A stretch of 64,000 nucleotides of DNA, taken from contig JAUSEN010000005.1 in assembly GCA_030650025.1 (NCBI GenBank), positions 3,631-67,630 of the forward strand, written 5' to 3'. This document shows, piece after piece, positions 15,728 through 62,406 of this stretch. Numbering within the stretch: position 1 is the first letter of the stretch; each line of letters opens with the position of its first letter. The notes beneath the pieces are model-generated. The model made no database searches and was not told the DNA's origin. It was given only the letters and a program-made list of their open reading frames with translations. Both the position numbers and the translations under genes were made by a program. This DNA comes from Candidatus Magasanikiibacteriota bacterium (GTDB taxonomy: Bacteria > Patescibacteriota > Patescibacteriia > Magasanikbacterales > GWA2-37-8).

Positions 15728-15758
15728 CTCCCCTGACACAATGTCAGGGGAGTTTTTT
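15728..15758 (+). terminator. Rho-independent terminator
   Basis: ctcccctgacacaatgtcaggggag followed by tttttt, immediately after the stop of the 14192..15700 gene. Confidence 0.7.
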
Positions 15759-15760
15759 GG

Positions 15761-15850
15761 TGGACCTAGCCAGCCCCGCACCACGCTGGGTGCGGGGTAA
15801 AAATCGAACTGCCGTCCCGGCAATGCGCCCCGACGTAAAGTCGGGGTAAA
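15761..15850 (-). pseudogene. tRNA-Ala-like 3' partial duplicate (anticodon loop to CCA) with GC-rich hairpin insertions
   Basis: Minus-strand reading ...GCGCATTGCCGGGACGGCAGTTCGATT[TTTACCCCGCACCCAGCGTGGTGCGGGG]CTGGCTAGGTCCACCA matches the 3' part of the adjacent tRNA-Ala(CGC). It carries a 27-nt hairpin in the T-arm, and a second hairpin CCCCGACTTTACGTCGGGG lies just 5'. There is no 5' acceptor strand. Confidence 0.45.
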
Positions 15851-15865
15851 AATGCCTTTGTGTTG

Positions 15866-15936
15866 TGGACCTAGCCAGAATCGGACTGGCGCTTCGGCAA
15901 TGCGAATGCCGCGTCATACCACTAGACCATAGGCCC
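15866..15936 (-). tRNA. tRNA-Ala (anticodon CGC)
   Basis: Hand fold of GGGCCTATGGTCTAGTGGTATGACGCGGCATTCGCATTGCCGAAGCGCCAGTCCGATTCTGGCTAGGTCCA. It has the G3:U70 Ala identity pair, anticodon stem CGGCA/TGCCG, loop TTCGCAT and T-loop TCCGATT. Confidence 0.75.
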
Positions 15937-17789: not shown

Positions 17790-17954
17790 ACAAACGTCGC
17801 TAGTGATGCCTCAACCTCTCCTCATCAAGCCCTGGTTCTTACCTGCGCCCCAGCCGCAGTTCAAGCTCATTCGAGCCTGCTGGGAATCTCTTGTTGAATT
17901 CAAAACTTGTTGGATCCAAGAAGCGAGCCCTGAACCCTACGTGGTTCAGGGATA

Positions 17955-32060: not shown

Positions 32061-32099
32061 CCACGGCCCGATAGCCAAGTTAGAAAGGCAAAGGTCTGC
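32061..32099 (+). pseudogene. 5' partial copy of tRNA-Cys (4-nt leader plus positions 1-35), interrupted in the anticodon loop by a hairpin element
   Basis: ccacGGCCCGATAGCCAAGTTAGAAAGGCAAAGGTCTGC is identical to 32156-32194. After the 31-nt insert the sequence resumes with AAAACCT (anticodon stem 3' side) and then diverges. Confidence 0.6.
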
Positions 32100-32130
32100 C
32101 TCCCTACGGGAGATCCCCCGCAGGGGGACA
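32100..32130. repeat. 31-nt double-hairpin element, left copy (perfect inverted copy at 32506..32536)
   Basis: ctccctacgggagatcccccgcagggggaca. Two tandem hairpins: tccc/ggga and ccccc/ggggg. Confidence 0.8.
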
Positions 32131-32159
32131 AAACCTATTATAAACTTATTAATTACCAC

Positions 32160-32232
32160 GGCCCGATAGCCAAGTTAGAAAGGCAAAGGTCTGCAAAACC
32201 TTCATGCGCGGGTGCAACTCCCGCTCGGGCCT
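32160..32232 (+). tRNA. tRNA-Cys (anticodon GCA)
   Basis: GGCCCGATAGCCAAGTTAGAAAGGCAAAGGTCTGCAAAACCTTCATGCGCGGGTGCAACTCCCGCTCGGGCCT. Acceptor GGCCCGA/TCGGGCC, U73 discriminator typical of Cys, anticodon loop CTGCAAA. The T-loop TGCAACT is slightly non-canonical. Confidence 0.6.
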
Positions 32233-32235
32233 CAC

Positions 32236-32500
32236 TGTGTACTACGTTTACGCACTGCAAAGTCTGAAAAATAAAAATTGGCTATATATTGGCTCGTCAG
32301 AAAATTTACGGGCCCGTTTTGATGAACATACAAGCGGAAAAGTTATTTCTACAGCTAAATATAGACCACTTCGATTAGTTTATTACGAAGCATTTCTGAA
32401 CAAGAAAGATGCGACTCTACGAGAATATCAGCTTAAACATAATAGCCAGCAGAAAGAACAGCTAAAACTTAAACTTATCAATTCTCTTCAGGCTGAATAG
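32236..32500 (+). CDS. Small GIY-YIG (URI-domain, YhbQ/UPF0213-like) nuclease
   Basis: VYYVYALQSLKNKNWLYIGSSENLRARFDEHTSGK...LRLVYYEAFLNKKDATLREYQLK. The ORF-track ATG at 32204 lies inside the tRNA, so a GTG at 32236 is proposed as the start. Paralog of the 49112..49369 gene. Confidence 0.6.
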
Positions 32501-32505
32501 TTGGG

Positions 32506-32536
32506 TGTCCCCCTGCGGGGGATCTCCCGTAGGGAG
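32506..32536. repeat. 31-nt double-hairpin element, right copy (inverted)
   Basis: tgtccccctgcgggggatctcccgtagggag is the exact reverse complement of 32100-32130. Confidence 0.8.
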
Positions 32537-32596
32537 ACAAGTCCCTCCGTGGCCTCACAATTTTCTTGTTTCTTGCCTGGCAAGATTTTTTTATTT

Positions 32597-48203: not shown

Positions 48204-48914
48204 CTATTTTCCCAGGCGACGCTCAGTGTCGCCGTATTTTTTTATAATTGCTTGGAGCTCCAGGGCAGTAAAATCGGGGAATAGAGTGGGGGTAAAGGCC
48301 AGTTGGGCGTCTTTAGCCTCCCACAGCAGGAATCCTTCGGAAAAATGAGCAAACTCTGGCTCGGCCGCGGTGCGAATAACCAAGTCAACCGGAGGGAGCT
48401 CGTGAGTATAGAGCTGTTTTTTTAGACCTTCTTCAGTAATGGCCGTGGTGTTAGCGCTAGGAAGGCGCGTTAAGGCGCTGATGGCCTTTAGCATCTCAAT
48501 AATGCCGCTATAAGCTAGTAAAAAAGTAAGGTTAAATTCAGTAAAATTAGCAGTTTTTGAAATCAGCTCTCGTAAAATTTTTTGCAGGGAGGTCGGAAGA
48601 TATGTTTCCCACTCGCCAAATACGCGCACCCGAACCAGACTTTTAGAATTGTTAACTTCATTCAATAATTTGGTAAAGTATTCCTCAAAAAGGCCAAATA
48701 AAAAGTTCACCTCCGCGGAATCTCGCTTGGTAACATTGCGGACCGAGCAGCCCCAAAATGTTAAGTAAGGGACACCAGCTTCACGGGCCGCTTTAAAAAG
48801 AGTTTCGGCGCCTTCAATACCAGCTTTGTGTCCAAGCGATCCAATCAGGCCTTTGGCTTTGGCCCAGCGGCGGTTGCCGTCGGGGATAATGGCGATGTGG
48901 GTAGGGAGAGACAT
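48204..48914 (-). CDS. uppS: Undecaprenyl-diphosphate synthase (cis-prenyltransferase)
   Basis: HIAIIPDGNRRWAKAKG N-terminal motif and the C-terminal RxG region. Confidence 0.85.
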   Translation of the reverse strand: MSLPTHIAIIPDGNRRWAKAKGLIGSLGHKAGIEGAETLFKAAREAGVPYLTFWGCSVRNVTKRDSAEVNFLFGLFEEYFTKLLNEVNNSKSLVRVRVFGEWETYLPTSLQKILRELISKTANFTEFNLTFLLAYSGIIEMLKAISALTRLPSANTTAITEEGLKKQLYTHELPPVDLVIRTAAEPEFAHFSEGFLLWEAKDAQLAFTPTLFPDFTALELQAIIKKYGDTERRLGK

Positions 48915-48931
48915 AGAGTAGAAATATTATT

Positions 48932-48986
48932 TGGTGGACCCTGTCGGGCTCGAACCGACCACCTCCGCATTGCAAACGCGGCGCTC
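48932..48986 (-). pseudogene. 3' portion (D-stem 3' strand to CCA) of a split tRNA-Ala(UGC)-like gene
   Basis: Minus-strand reading GAGCGCCGCGTTTGCAATGCGGAGGTGGTCGGTTCGAGCCCGACAGGGTCCACCA: anticodon loop TTTGCAA, T-loop TTCGAGC, encoded CCA. The matching 5' piece GGGCCCTTAGCTCAT lies at 49443-49457, separated by ~456 bp. Confidence 0.55.
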
Positions 48987-49038
48987 CCGTGCACCACAAG
49001 GGTGCACGGCCATGAACCCTTGTGGTTCATGGTACCAG
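48983..49038. repeat. 56-nt double-hairpin direct repeat, copy 1 (copy 2 at 49387..49442)
   Basis: gctcccgtgcaccacaagggtgcacggccatgaacccttgtggttcatggtaccag. Hairpins ccgtgcacc/ggtgcacgg and catgaacc/ggttcatg. Copy 2 is identical except for one nt. Confidence 0.85.
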
Positions 49039-49110
49039 TGGACCTGAGGGGATTCGCACCCCTGACCTTCGCCTTGCAAAGGCGCCGCTCTACTACTGAG
49101 CTACAGGCCC
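49039..49110 (-). tRNA. tRNA-Ala (anticodon UGC)
   Basis: GGGCCTGTAGCTCAGTAGTAGAGCGGCGCCTTTGCAAGGCGAAGGTCAGGGGTGCGAATCCCCTCAGGTCCA. G3:U70 pair, anticodon loop TTTGCAA. Confidence 0.8.
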
Positions 49111-49111
49111 T

Positions 49112-49369
49112 TTATTTAGTTGACCTCAAGTATTCGTACAGCATTAATCGTAATGTTGTTTTGCCTTTGTTTGTTTTGAAATATTTTTCTCTCCTCTTGG
49201 CATCATGCTCGTGTAAAAAGGCCTCATAAAAAATAAGTTTGACCGGTAAAAATTTGCTTGTTGTTTTATCCCCACCCGCGGAGTGTTCTCTGACTCGGCG
49301 TTTAAGATCGGCTGAATAGCCCGTGTAAAATTGTTTATTGCACATCATTAATATGTAGGTATAAAACAT
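49112..49369 (-). CDS. Small GIY-YIG (YhbQ/UPF0213-like) nuclease, paralog of the 32236..32500 gene
   Basis: MFYTYILMMCNKQFYTGYSADLKRRVREHSAGGDKTTSKFLPVKLIFYEAFLHEHDAKRREKYFK aligns with the other GIY-YIG protein. The ORF-track N-terminus (to 49417) is encoded by repeat copy 2 and is probably not translated. The stop lies 1 nt from the tRNA-Ala 5' end. Confidence 0.6.
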   Translation of the reverse strand: MFYTYILMMCNKQFYTGYSADLKRRVREHSAGGDKTTSKFLPVKLIFYEAFLHEHDAKRREKYFKTNKGKTTLRLMLYEYLRSTK

Positions 49370-49386
49370 ATTTGCAGATATATATT

Positions 49387-49442
49387 GCTCCCGTGCACCA
49401 CAAGGGTGCACGGCCATGAACCCTTGTGGTTCATGGTTCCAG
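49387..49442. repeat. 56-nt double-hairpin direct repeat, copy 2
   Basis: gctcccgtgcaccacaagggtgcacggccatgaacccttgtggttcatggttccag. Confidence 0.85.
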
Positions 49443-49457
49443 ATGAGCTAAGGGCCC
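49443..49457 (-). pseudogene. 5' piece (acceptor 5' strand plus D-stem) of the split tRNA-Ala-like gene
   Basis: Minus-strand reading GGGCCCTTAGCTCAT. GGGCCCT pairs with AGGGTCC of the 48932-48986 piece, including G3:U70. Confidence 0.45.
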
Positions 49458-49602
49458 TGCTTCGCTAAAGCTTCGCAGGGTAAACCCCAGAAGCCCTGAC
49501 TTTAGTTGGTATAATTTATCAGCAATTAACAGAAAAGTCAATCAGTGCTATAATTTATTTGGAGGGAAGAAATAATTTATTTTAATTGATATAAACATAA
49601 AT

Positions 49603-50013
49603 ATGAATATAGAATTTATATTTTTGGGGCAGGTGCTTTTGGCGGCGGTACTCGGAGGGCTTTTGGGGTTCCAGCGCGAACGTTTAGGCAAGCCCGCGGG
49701 GCCACGGACATATGCTCTAGTCACAGCCGGGTCGGCCTTATTTACTATTTTGTCTATATATGGGTTTGGGCCGAATGATACGGCGCGAGTGGCCTCAAAT
49801 ATAGTCGTGGGAATGGGGTTTTTGGGAGCCGGCTTAATTTTTCAACGCGATGGCCACATTGATAATCTTACCACTGCCGCTGGGCTGTGGGCTTCGGCGG
49901 CGGTCGGGATGGCGGTCGGCACCGGGCATTATATTTTAGCGGTGGGCGGGGCGGTGATAATGTTGATTTTATTTGCCATTAACGACAGCAAGTTTCGAAA
50001 GCAAGAAAAATAA
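49603..50013 (+). CDS. MgtC/SapB-family membrane protein
   Basis: 136 aa. LLAAVLGGLLGFQRERLGKPAGPRTYALV is the MgtC-family N-terminal signature. Confidence 0.7.
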   Translation: MNIEFIFLGQVLLAAVLGGLLGFQRERLGKPAGPRTYALVTAGSALFTILSIYGFGPNDTARVASNIVVGMGFLGAGLIFQRDGHIDNLTTAAGLWASAAVGMAVGTGHYILAVGGAVIMLILFAINDSKFRKQEK

Positions 50014-62320: not shown

Positions 62321-62400
62321 ATATATGGAGAGGTGGCGCACGCGCACACCGAATTAGATTACACATGGAGAGGTGGCGCACGCGCACACCGAATTAGATT
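62321..62400 (+). repeat. Two tandem 40-bp repeats, each duplicating the first ~12 nt of tRNA-Ser plus upstream -10-like sequence
   Basis: a(t/c)atggagaggtggcgcacgcgcacaccgaattagatt repeated twice, then a third copy of acatggagaggtg continues into the intact tRNA. Confidence 0.8.
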
Positions 62401-62406
62401 ATACAT

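Follow-up and report, generated by a model that had tools for sequence, protein, structure and literature searches.

The 64,000-nt stretch of DNA analyzed here (hereafter the window) is part of contig JAUSEN010000005.1 of a Candidatus Magasanikiibacteriota bacterium. On its minus strand, it contains a tRNA-Ala(UGC) gene that is split by a small cassette comprising a palindromic double hairpin, a GIY-YIG nuclease gene, and a second, intact tRNA-Ala(UGC) gene. Here, we describe this locus and its counterparts, in or beside tRNA, tmRNA, and 5S rRNA genes, in about a hundred other genomes, and we outline the evidence that hairpin and nuclease probably belong to a family of very small selfish elements that invade stable-RNA genes. 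Read along the minus strand, the locus begins with positions 1–21 of the outer tRNA-Ala(UGC), i.e. the acceptor 5′ strand, the D-stem 5′ strand, and the D-loop to A21 (49457–49437, GGGCCCTTAGCTCATCTGGAA); a preliminary description of the sequence had delimited this 5′ piece as GGGCCCTTAGCTCAT (49457–49443). The first copy of a 56-nt direct repeat (49442–49387) consists of CTGGAA from the D-loop, a 46-nt double hairpin (49436–49391), and GAGC from the D-stem 3′ strand (49390–49387). Hairpin 1 of this copy is CCATGAACC-ACAAG-GGTTCATGG (49436–49414), and hairpin 2 is CCGTGCACC-CTTGT-GGTGCACGG (49413–49391). An A+T-rich spacer of 17 nt (AATATATATCTGCAAAT, 49386–49370) leads to the start codon of the nuclease gene, which extends from an ATG at 49369 to a stop at 49112 and encodes 85 amino acids (MFYTY...RSTK). 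The inner, intact tRNA-Ala(UGC), presumed to be a replacement copy, occupies 49110–49039 and is followed by the second copy of the repeat (49038–48983), made up of CTGGTA, the 46-nt double hairpin (49032–48987), and GAGC. Positions 22–76 of the outer tRNA-Ala(UGC), from the D-stem 3′ strand through a canonical TTCGAGC T-loop to an encoded CCA, lie at 48986–48932, and the start codon of uppS (48914) is found 17 nt beyond them.

The preliminary description had listed the split pieces, the intact tRNA, the repeats, and the nuclease gene, and all are present in the sequence, including the separation of the outer pieces (456 nt), the single nucleotide between nuclease stop and inner tRNA, and the near-identity of the two direct repeats (55 of 56 positions), each of which contains two perfect 9-bp hairpins. 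The only difference between the copies lies in the tRNA-derived flank. The size of the insert, however, has to be revised. Although the repeat is 56 nt long, as had been reported, comparison with an uninterrupted homologue (D-arm GCTCATCTGGTAGAGC) places the insertion point exactly between A21 and G22 and identifies 10 nt of the repeat (CTGG[A/T]A and GAGC) as tRNA D-arm sequence; the uninterrupted D-arm sequence of tRNA-Ala is CTGGTAGAGC. The inserted part is thus 46 nt (23 + 23), and recombination between the repeats would leave 46 nt in the D-loop rather than the 56 nt that had been predicted. A promoter-like site on the same strand (TTGACT-17-TAAATT with TG, a consensus match only), located at 49541–49513, ~55 nt upstream of the outer 5′ piece, probably drives transcription of the whole cassette. 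Because no terminator-like site was found between this site and uppS, the 5′ piece, the nuclease gene, the inner tRNA, the 3′ piece, and uppS probably form one transcription unit.

When joined, the outer pieces are recognized by ARAGORN as a tRNA-Ala(UGC) with a full cloverleaf, in line with the preliminary description: all stems are paired, and G3:U70, G18G19, the TTCGAGC T-loop, and the encoded CCA are in place. The joined gene is 82% identical to an uninterrupted tRNA-Ala(UGC) on a related contig, whereas the inner tRNA-Ala is only 72% identical to the outer gene. An uninterrupted tRNA-Ala is found directly upstream of uppS at all four of the most similar uppS loci that could be checked. 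Since relatives keep an uninterrupted tRNA-Ala by uppS, and given these identities, the split outer tRNA-Ala is the native gene, and the inner tRNA-Ala is a replacement whose descent is different. Against Rfam RF00005 (gathering threshold 29), the inner gene scores 67 bits; it has G3:U70, lacks an encoded CCA, and differs from the outer gene in acceptor stem, anticodon stem, and T-arm. Its D-loop (AGTAGTA, without GG) and T-loop (TGCGAAT, with TGC) are atypical, and the same pair occurs in tRNAs of relatives far from nuclease genes. An extra tRNA-Ala called by ARAGORN at 48932–49005 was rejected as an artifact, in which the hairpin is borrowed as an acceptor strand; it scores 20 bits in Rfam, below threshold.

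The two outer pieces are pristine and jointly make a canonical tRNA with CCA, which would also be expected if the outer tRNA-Ala were still expressed and the 450-nt interval were removed from the RNA, either as an unrecognized intron or by splicing guided by repeat pairing, as in archaeal split and intron-containing tRNAs. The two copies of the repeat can pair (80% complementary), and group I introns are common in tRNAs of Patescibacteria (PMC13011429), one of them adjoining a hairpin–nuclease element at another locus (L033, see below). Yet, the region 48600–49800 has no Rfam match to a group I or group II intron ribozyme, or to any other intron or ribozyme family, at E up to 10, and the whole window has no group I or group II match at gathering score. 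Inspection of the junctions revealed no bulge–helix–bulge motif: at A21|C and G|G22, perfect 9-bp helices begin immediately, without 3-nt bulges. Moreover, RNase P and 3′ processing would excise the complete tRNA held in the interval, the pairing in the hairpins is of the DNA type, with almost no G-U, and splicing could not restore the old gene at most related loci, where its 3′ part has been lost, has diverged, or is full of further hairpins. Intact tRNAs interrupted by a hairpin alone are rare; when double hairpins were deleted from 160 loci and ARAGORN was rerun, essentially no new internal cases of an intron-like hairpin emerged. Removal at the RNA level is therefore a very improbable explanation.

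The nuclease matches Pfam PF01541 (7.5e-14, 52.2 bits; cut-off 22.6) and consists of a single GIY-YIG domain of ~85 amino acids, in which the catalytic-type residues Y15, G17, R25, H29, and E49 are invariant in 28 sequences. The open reading frame (ORF) returned by an ORF finder is 101 amino acids long, and the preliminary description was right to ascribe its N-terminus to the repeat: the 16 extra residues are read from repeat and spacer, homologues start with MFYTY (ATG 49369), and the database entry identical to the nuclease is 85 amino acids long. A profile of the family retrieved BH0048 (2.3e-13) and EF2693 (4.2e-11), both UPF0213 proteins, and SLX1 (0.008) from the PDB, with no match to I-TevI or UvrC at E up to 1; the NCBIfam model of group I intron endonucleases gives the nuclease 17.5 bits, under its cut-off of 56. 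These comparisons place the nuclease, as far as sequence can tell, in the UPF0213/SLX1-like branch of GIY-YIG proteins, and by analogy with the junction-cutting SLX1 it is plausible that it recognizes structure. The family is large, with 3,835 clusters at E up to 0.001 in a full scan of 1.84 billion representative proteins. A defense-system or phage origin was considered and rejected: neither the PADLOC models of anti-phage defense nor the PHROGs models of phage proteins gave a significant match to the nuclease, and the family is nearly absent from phage and plasmid records. The nuclease is 38% identical to the product of a second GIY-YIG gene, at a tRNA-Cys locus of the window, of which it had been called a paralogue.

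A search with the family alignment, limited to one genome per species, yielded 80 loci (L-numbers are locus labels), mostly in Patescibacteria, with some in Planctomycetota, Lentisphaerota, Omnitrophota, and others. A same-strand tRNA lies within 300 nt of the nuclease at 57 of these loci, where chance would account for a few per cent; an opposite-strand tRNA is never found. The linked tRNA is placed either −10 to +15 nt after the stop or 60–280 nt before the start. Among the other loci, several show instead a tRNA truncated where the contig ends, the 3′ fragment of a tRNA, a 5S rRNA (L017), a tmRNA (L058), or a tRNA with a group I intron (L033). Double hairpins in the strict sense, defined as two adjacent perfect stems of at least 7 bp, precede 23 of 79 nuclease genes by no more than 150 nt; the figure for control windows from the same loci is 1 of 410, and many more loci carry imperfect or more elaborate hairpins. 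Hairpin, nuclease, and tRNA are hence linked in many independent genomes, as the preliminary description would lead one to expect. Several diverged paralogues per genome are found at different tRNAs (two in this 64 kb), and they stand in tandem at L048, L057, L059, and L070.

Three arrangements can be distinguished. In arrangement (a), exemplified by L002, L004, L009, L011, L038, L054, L072, and L080, a tRNA 5′ fragment is followed by the hairpin, 3–8 nt that continue the tRNA, the spacer, the nuclease, and an intact tRNA. In arrangement (b), exemplified by L007, L014, L017, L023, L033, L035, and L073, an intact tRNA, tmRNA, or 5S rRNA has the hairpin directly at its 3′ end, followed by spacer and nuclease, and sometimes a 3′ fragment of the RNA gene, 9–10 nt or longer, is repeated after the stop. 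In arrangement (c), the nuclease ORF is placed between inverted repeats, with arrays of solo copies nearby (L053, L056, L078, and L079). The inverted repeats at these four loci (~2975–3290 in L053, L056, and L079; ~2840–3000 in L078) read CCC[GT]GTAGTAGAA...TTCACTAC[AG]GG, with the ORF in the loop of the long hairpin. At L078, at least five solo copies of that hairpin are arrayed upstream, resembling a cluster of repetitive extragenic palindromic (REP) sequences or bacterial interspersed mosaic elements (BIMEs).

Several individual loci deserve separate mention. At L017 (2705–2853), the element directly follows a 5S rRNA, and a 9-nt repeat, AATGCCAGC, stands after the nuclease stop; at L058 (2470–2852), an element of hairpin and nuclease directly follows a tmRNA gene. 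With elements after 5S rRNA and tmRNA, the range of targets covers stable-RNA genes generally and not tRNAs alone. At L033 (2595–2796), the tRNA that precedes the hairpin and nuclease contains a group I intron (Rfam, 72.9 bits) and the element is flanked by a 10-nt repeat, CCCCGCAACA; two kinds of tRNA parasite are present in one gene. At L043 (~2860–2870), there is no upstream tRNA and the element starts with GGAACCA, the 7 nt with which the tRNA-Gln upstream of its close relatives L051 and L075 ends; either the element carried the tRNA 3′ end elsewhere or the tRNA was deleted.

Within tRNAs, the insertion points are D-loop 21/22 (GG[TC]A|GA), 9/10 (L005), the anticodon loop, 43/44, and the T-loop after TTCG. 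The window locus can be aligned with tRNA-Leu loci (L002, L006, and L011) and a tRNA-Lys locus (L005) over a block that starts at the last nucleotides of the tRNA fragment (TGG[TC]A), spans hairpin, spacer, and ORF, and stops at the next tRNA; GG[TC]A|G is the site shared by the Ala, Leu, and Lys loci. In another Magasanikbacterium (L002), a near-identical hairpin is found at the same D-loop position of a tRNA-Leu. Because the block aligns across different tRNA isotypes, hairpin, spacer, and nuclease make up the heritable unit, which has occupied different isotypes sharing a short site.

The same insertion points invite a second interpretation. They fall in the most conserved tRNA motifs, and to recognize such motifs is a classical strategy of homing endonucleases; the protein could therefore be a conventional free-standing homing endonuclease that recognizes tRNA sequence (D-loop TGGTAGAGC, T-loop GTTCGAATC, and anticodon loops), the hairpins being independent palindromic miniature elements that are mobilized otherwise and share its sites. 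Solo hairpins without a nearby nuclease do exist (window 15774–15846 and 17928–17951; L003), and SegB of phage T4, a GIY-YIG enzyme, cuts in a tRNA gene cluster (PMC2330249). However, independent hairpins would not be expected at a fixed short distance (10–60 nt) upstream of the ORF and in one orientation, nor would hairpin, spacer, and ORF be expected to stay together as one block across tRNA isotypes. The protein also lacks the DNA-binding domain that gives Seg proteins and I-TevI their specificity and groups instead with structure-specific nucleases. We regard this interpretation as unlikely, but it is the most serious competitor of the selfish hairpin–nuclease element.

Disrupted genes and their substitutes occur together at many loci. 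An intact tRNA immediately follows the nuclease at 27 loci, of which ~19 have an upstream 5′ fragment of that tRNA ending in a loop and 10 a downstream 3′ fragment. Full brackets (old 5′ piece, hairpin, nuclease, intact tRNA, and old 3′ piece) are found at L021, L034, L040, L068, L074, and L173. The last of these, a relative of the nuclease at the tRNA-Cys locus of the window, has its nuclease and new tRNA-Cys flanked on either side by AGTCTG + hairpin + CAAAACTC; its hairpin duplication is in direct orientation, as at the tRNA-Ala locus of the window. The intact tRNA is of the same isotype as the disrupted one. Old pieces and intact tRNA clearly differ at L071, L169, L176, and the tRNA-Ala locus of the window and are identical at L004, L038, L072, and others; some of the supplied tRNAs are identical copies of local origin, not foreign ones.

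These brackets also bear on the integrity of the window itself. Short-read assemblers can misjoin at repeats of this length, there is only one assembly of the genome, and the 56-nt repeat could have joined two loci by mistake in a metagenome-assembled contig. But other studies, with other assemblers, independently yielded the same bracket (L068, L074, L173, and others), the flanks fit a conserved synteny (tRNA-Ala by uppS), and the two copies of the repeat differ by one base, in the tRNA-derived flank. We thus attach only the faintest probability to an assembly artifact.

Breakpoints are regular. The tRNA continues for 3–8 nt (median 5) between hairpin and spacer, right-hand copies of the repeat start 5–6 nt before the hairpin, and elements at RNA 3′ ends can be flanked by repeats of 9–10 nt (L017 and L033). 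The direct repeat often extends 3–8 nt upstream of tRNA position 1, at L080 into what appears to be the decayed 3′ end of a nuclease gene. Remnants of dead tRNAs bear extra solo hairpins, again at loops (L003, L010, L040, and the tRNA-Ala(CGC) of the window). An old tRNA-Leu at L003 (3341–3530) contains three inserted hairpins, one each in its anticodon, variable, and T-loops, and tandem arrays of tRNA 3′ end plus hairpin are found at L040 (3357–3540) and L010 (3342–3640); these remnants suggest repeated cycles of cutting and repair. Two related species have tRNA-Cys elements (L173 and L176) in the same PfkB...PGM neighborhood and at the same chromosomal position, but L173 has the nuclease ahead of the tRNA and L176 the tRNA ahead of the nuclease; their comparison indicates that the cassette rearranges in place or can be permuted.

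A more mundane account would treat all of this as neutral debris: hot spots of tRNA duplication and recombination in these small genomes, hairpins that are terminators or REP-like, and a host housekeeping GIY-YIG nuclease co-transcribed with tRNAs by chance. Partial duplications without a nuclease gene are present at further tRNA loci of the window, one member of the family is stably fixed in its population (24 contigs), and UPF0213 genes are ordinary chromosomal genes in Bacillus and Escherichia coli. This account, however, leaves unexplained why a genome should have several diverged paralogues, each at a different tRNA, and a role in termination does not explain hairpins at precise positions of tRNA loops. 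Furthermore, the enrichment over controls is very large, and a broken tRNA is always accompanied by an intact one. Neutral debris consequently strikes us as improbable, and less likely than a conventional homing endonuclease.

The hairpins themselves point to selection at the DNA level. As DNA, the repeat folds with a ΔG of −21.6 kcal/mol (z = −6.5), and the complementary strand folds too (~−21 kcal/mol). The loops of the two hairpins at the window locus are reverse complements of each other, and the 23-nt hairpin occurs at two places only in the window, with 0 expected. Alignments define a hairpin family A, which includes that of the window and has stems of 9–12 bp ending ACC...GGT and the loops ACGTAG and CTACGT, and a family B with the loops ATCC and GGAT; the hairpins of the tRNA-Cys locus represent a third family. 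In family A, 98.8% of positions are paired and 16 of 21 pairs have changed on both sides, a compensatory level reached by 0 of 500 shuffles, and slid controls are 24–41% paired. In family B, every position is paired (100%), and compensatory change affects 10 of 16 pairs. G-T pairs account for 3 of 415 cells in the hairpin alignments. Because compensatory change is strong and G-T pairs are almost absent, the hairpins are palindromes of DNA that selection maintains; near-absence of G-T is expected if both DNA strands must fold or if a palindrome is copied, but not if the helix is one of RNA. Hairpin 1 is, at its loop and top, the reverse complement of hairpin 2 in both families, so the same hairpin motif is shown once per strand, which makes the site two-fold symmetric.

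By their compensatory change, their dispersed copies, some of them solo, and their arrays (L078 and L025), the hairpins qualify as double-hairpin or palindromic miniature elements. Many family A hairpins begin with CCA. One solo hairpin in the window, CCCTGAACC-CTACGT-GGTTCAGGG (17928–17951), matches the family A consensus exactly; it is intergenic and stands just before a terminator-like hairpin. The 140 nt upstream of it (~17790–17927), for which Rfam gave no match, may represent an RNA gene missed by the annotation.

Taken together, these observations lead us to favor, with somewhat better than even confidence, a family of very small selfish elements, each made of a hairpin and a GIY-YIG nuclease gene, that invade stable-RNA genes and are tolerated via the intact tRNA copy. 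The preliminary description had proposed a mobile or selfish family whose members enter tRNA genes and bring a substitute tRNA with them, a proposal now supported by the native status of the split gene, the linkage of the components, and the recurrent brackets; mobility as such is inferred from the distribution. Neither of the outcomes that the preliminary description had named as refuting its proposal was observed, since the split pieces do fold as a tRNA and repeats and nuclease occur together in other places as well. The core of the element consists of the palindromic double hairpin (~40–60 nt), the short A+T-rich spacer, and the minimal nuclease gene of ~85 codons. It lies in the same orientation as the stable-RNA gene and, because of this same-strand orientation and the lack of terminators, is probably transcribed from the promoter of that gene. 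Its sites are just past the 3′ end of a tRNA, tmRNA, or 5S rRNA, or in a conserved tRNA loop. Insertion inside a tRNA would destroy the gene, and the element would persist because an intact tRNA of the same isotype adjoins the nuclease gene, the old gene surviving as an upstream 5′ piece and often also as a downstream 3′ piece. In the window, the native tRNA-Ala(UGC) by uppS would have been invaded at A21/G22, with the inner tRNA-Ala as the working substitute and with the hairpin plus 6 + 4 nt of D-arm flank duplicated on both sides of the cassette.

How such an element might move can be sketched as follows. The nuclease would recognize the hairpin, probably in the form of an extruded cruciform or of folded single-stranded DNA, and would nick opposite strands ~5 nt outside the hairpin on either side; the distance is suggested by the regular offsets of the breakpoints (3–8 nt after the hairpin, 5–6 nt before it, and repeats of 9–10 nt). 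The extruded hairpin would then lie inside a staggered break, whose repair would copy in or capture the cassette of nuclease and tRNA. Fill-in would duplicate 6 nt + hairpin + 4 nt, the pattern seen at the tRNA-Ala locus of the window and at L173, and repair would also leave 3–8 nt of tRNA between hairpin and spacer. Spread between genomes would resemble homing, with the tRNA fragment and the intact tRNA as conserved homology arms. In such a scheme, the duplicated tRNA portion would take the place that splicing has in the case of endonucleases carried by introns.

Several points weigh against this reading. Polymorphism between filled and empty sites was not found: one family member, present on 24 contigs from many samples, is always in the same context. 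Nor was an empty-site allele seen, although the relatives available were too distant for an empty or single-repeat form of the window locus to be looked for: look-ups of the exact proteins (UppS and the nuclease) came back empty, and the UppS relatives in metagenomes are at most 47% identical. The intact tRNA often keeps the target sequence of the disrupted one (e.g. L002), with no obvious avoidance of self-targeting. The nuclease is a bare catalytic domain of 85 amino acids without an evident DNA-binding domain, and its cutting of hairpin or tRNA DNA is an extrapolation from sequence. Repeats composed of a tRNA 5′ part plus 3–8 nt, present at many loci, are not explained by a single staggered-cut scheme; for them, we have to invoke either homologous resolution or serial invasions, each striking a tRNA that a previous copy had introduced. 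Hand assembly was used for the hairpin alignments. Finally, the very slight chance of a repeat-mediated assembly error, discussed above, applies to the single metagenome-assembled contig on which the window locus is known.

A bolder reading, which we put forward tentatively and would sooner bet against than for, goes further. The elements may represent an undescribed class of minimal autonomous mobile elements (~330–400 bp) that practice structure-guided rather than sequence-guided homing, the double hairpin serving as the cis site and the nuclease cutting at the extruded base. With the same reserve, these elements may invade the loops and 3′ ends of stable RNAs in Patescibacteria, Planctomycetota, Omnitrophota, and others, carry or regenerate a tRNA, and shred and replace tRNA genes, in which case they could be a major shaper of tRNA gene evolution in reduced genomes.

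The tRNA-Cys locus, on the plus strand of the window, had been named as a second instance of the same unit. It is a true second instance, except that its hairpin pair is inverted rather than direct. The element extends over 32061–32559 and begins with CCAC and positions 1–35 of tRNA-Cys (32061–32099), a perfect 39-nt copy of 32156–32194. There follow the hairpin pair (32100–32128), 7 nt that continue the tRNA-Cys (AAAACCT, 32130–32136) and a spacer, the intact tRNA-Cys (32160–32232), the GIY-YIG gene (32237–32500), an inverted copy of the hairpin pair (32506–32539), and a diverged tRNA-Cys 3′ fragment (32538–32558). L169 reproduces this architecture, including the inverted hairpin pair.

Further tRNA loci of the window show related features. 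On the minus strand, the tRNA-Ala(CGC) region (15758–15936) starts with an intact gene (15936–15865) without CCA and with the T-loop TCCGATT, continues with a hairpin (15846–15828), and then contains the 3′ part of an older tRNA-Ala(CGC) from the anticodon onward. A hairpin of the family A type (15797–15774) lies inside the T-loop of this older remnant, after TTCGAT, and the remnant is followed by CTGGCTAGGTCCACCA (15773–15758) and a terminator. The pattern of a new gene and a riddled old gene is thus the same here, without a nuclease gene. Directly upstream of tRNA-Ser(CGA) (62327–62406, plus strand) are two tandem 40-nt units, each consisting of the first 9 nt of the tRNA (GGAGAGGTG) and GCGCACGCGCACACCGAATTAGATTA[C/T]ACAT, a partial 5′ duplication that is likewise without a nuclease gene. 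An apparent 3′ duplication after tRNA-Ser(UGA) proved to be an artifact of the window end.

T-loops that start with TGC (or TCC) instead of TTC were observed in the window (32160–32232, 49039–49110, and 15865–15936) and at L016, L052, L069, and L087. Every tRNA with a TGC T-loop also lacks GG in the D-loop (e.g. AGTAGTA), which suggests a co-varying alternative D-loop/T-loop tertiary contact in these lineages. The idea that replacement tRNAs escape re-insertion by loss of GG and TTC was examined and found unconvincing: among 151 tRNAs, non-canonical T-loops were found in 5 of 27 placed after a nuclease, 4 of 40 placed before one, and 8 of 84 elsewhere.

If the proposed selfish element is real, it would explain the ‘GIY-YIG family protein’ genes, tRNA fragments, and odd hairpins found by tRNA genes of the candidate phyla radiation, and it would give a large uncharacterized UPF0213-like family a concrete biological role. 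At loci of this kind, tRNA finders both miss and invent genes; in the window, ARAGORN invented one. The element would be an example of a selfish entity that lives in an essential RNA gene without a ribozyme, by means of a spare copy that is either brought along or made, and imported tRNAs that replace native ones would constitute an unrecognized route of horizontal tRNA gene transfer. A nuclease of 85 residues guided by DNA hairpins could also be of practical interest. Additionally, these elements would be a bacterial counterpart of the double-hairpin elements (DHEs) of mitochondria, with a candidate enzyme. In Allomyces, a DHE is reported to border a mobile endonuclease ORF, which brings with it a second copy of the 3′ end of atp6.

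Among known systems, the Seg endonucleases of T4-like phages are similar in that their GIY-YIG genes lie among tRNA genes, outside introns, and are selfish and co-convert their flanks; cleavage of the tRNA gene region by SegB promotes inheritance of its own gene and of its neighbors (PMC2330249). Unlike the bare 85-amino-acid domain of the UPF0213/SLX1 branch encoded in the window, however, Seg proteins have two domains, one of them for DNA binding, and their genes are those of phages rather than chromosomes and are not known to be accompanied by a hairpin element, tRNA fragments, or a replacement copy. Group I introns of bacterial tRNAs (PMC13011429; PMC3984707) sit in the anticodon loop, abound in Patescibacteria, and in some cases bear GIY-YIG genes, but the window element has no ribozyme, and rescue would come from a second gene copy instead of splicing. 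The closest sequence relatives of the nuclease, UPF0213 proteins (YazA/YhbQ; PDB 1zg2 and 1ywl) and SLX1, share the same minimal GIY-YIG (URI) domain. Bacterial UPF0213 genes, by contrast, are single-copy and of the housekeeping type. We know of no link of these genes to hairpins or tRNA genes.

The DHEs of chytrid and fission-yeast mitochondria (Paquin and Lang, as summarized in PMC10085805) are, according to that summary, short, G+C-rich pairs of adjacent hairpins that are multi-copy, potentially mobile, and found between genes as well as inside rRNA genes. They differ in being mitochondrial, in their unrelated sequences, and in having no enzyme assigned to them in that summary, whereas the hairpins of the window are coupled to a nuclease gene and to tRNA loops. 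REP sequences and REPINs, together with the RAYT genes, resemble the present system as dispersed, non-autonomous palindromic hairpins with one nuclease-type gene flanked by hairpins (compare L053, L056, L078, and L079); RAYTs, however, are HUH/Y1 transposases with covalent intermediates and not hydrolytic GIY-YIG enzymes, and REPs are extragenic and are not known to target stable-RNA genes. Integrase-bearing islands and prophages in tRNA and tmRNA genes have the same targets, are flanked by a partial duplicate of the gene, and reconstitute an intact gene. They are kilobases in length and enter the 3′ part of the gene by attP/attB crossover with a tyrosine integrase, whereas the hairpin–nuclease elements measure 330–750 bp, have no integrase, insert in the D-, anticodon-, or T-loop, and often leave a 5′ rather than a 3′ duplicate.

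No description of the hairpin–nuclease–tRNA association was found in open-access papers and preprints, and a 2026 survey of tRNA introns in Patescibacteria makes no mention of it; a prior description elsewhere is possible. None of the systems compared here combines a minimal nuclease of the UPF0213/SLX1 type, a double hairpin, and disruption of a tRNA with its replacement. The element thus appears to be kin both to selfish nuclease elements of the homing type and to palindromic miniature elements, and there is a substantial chance that its mechanism is new.

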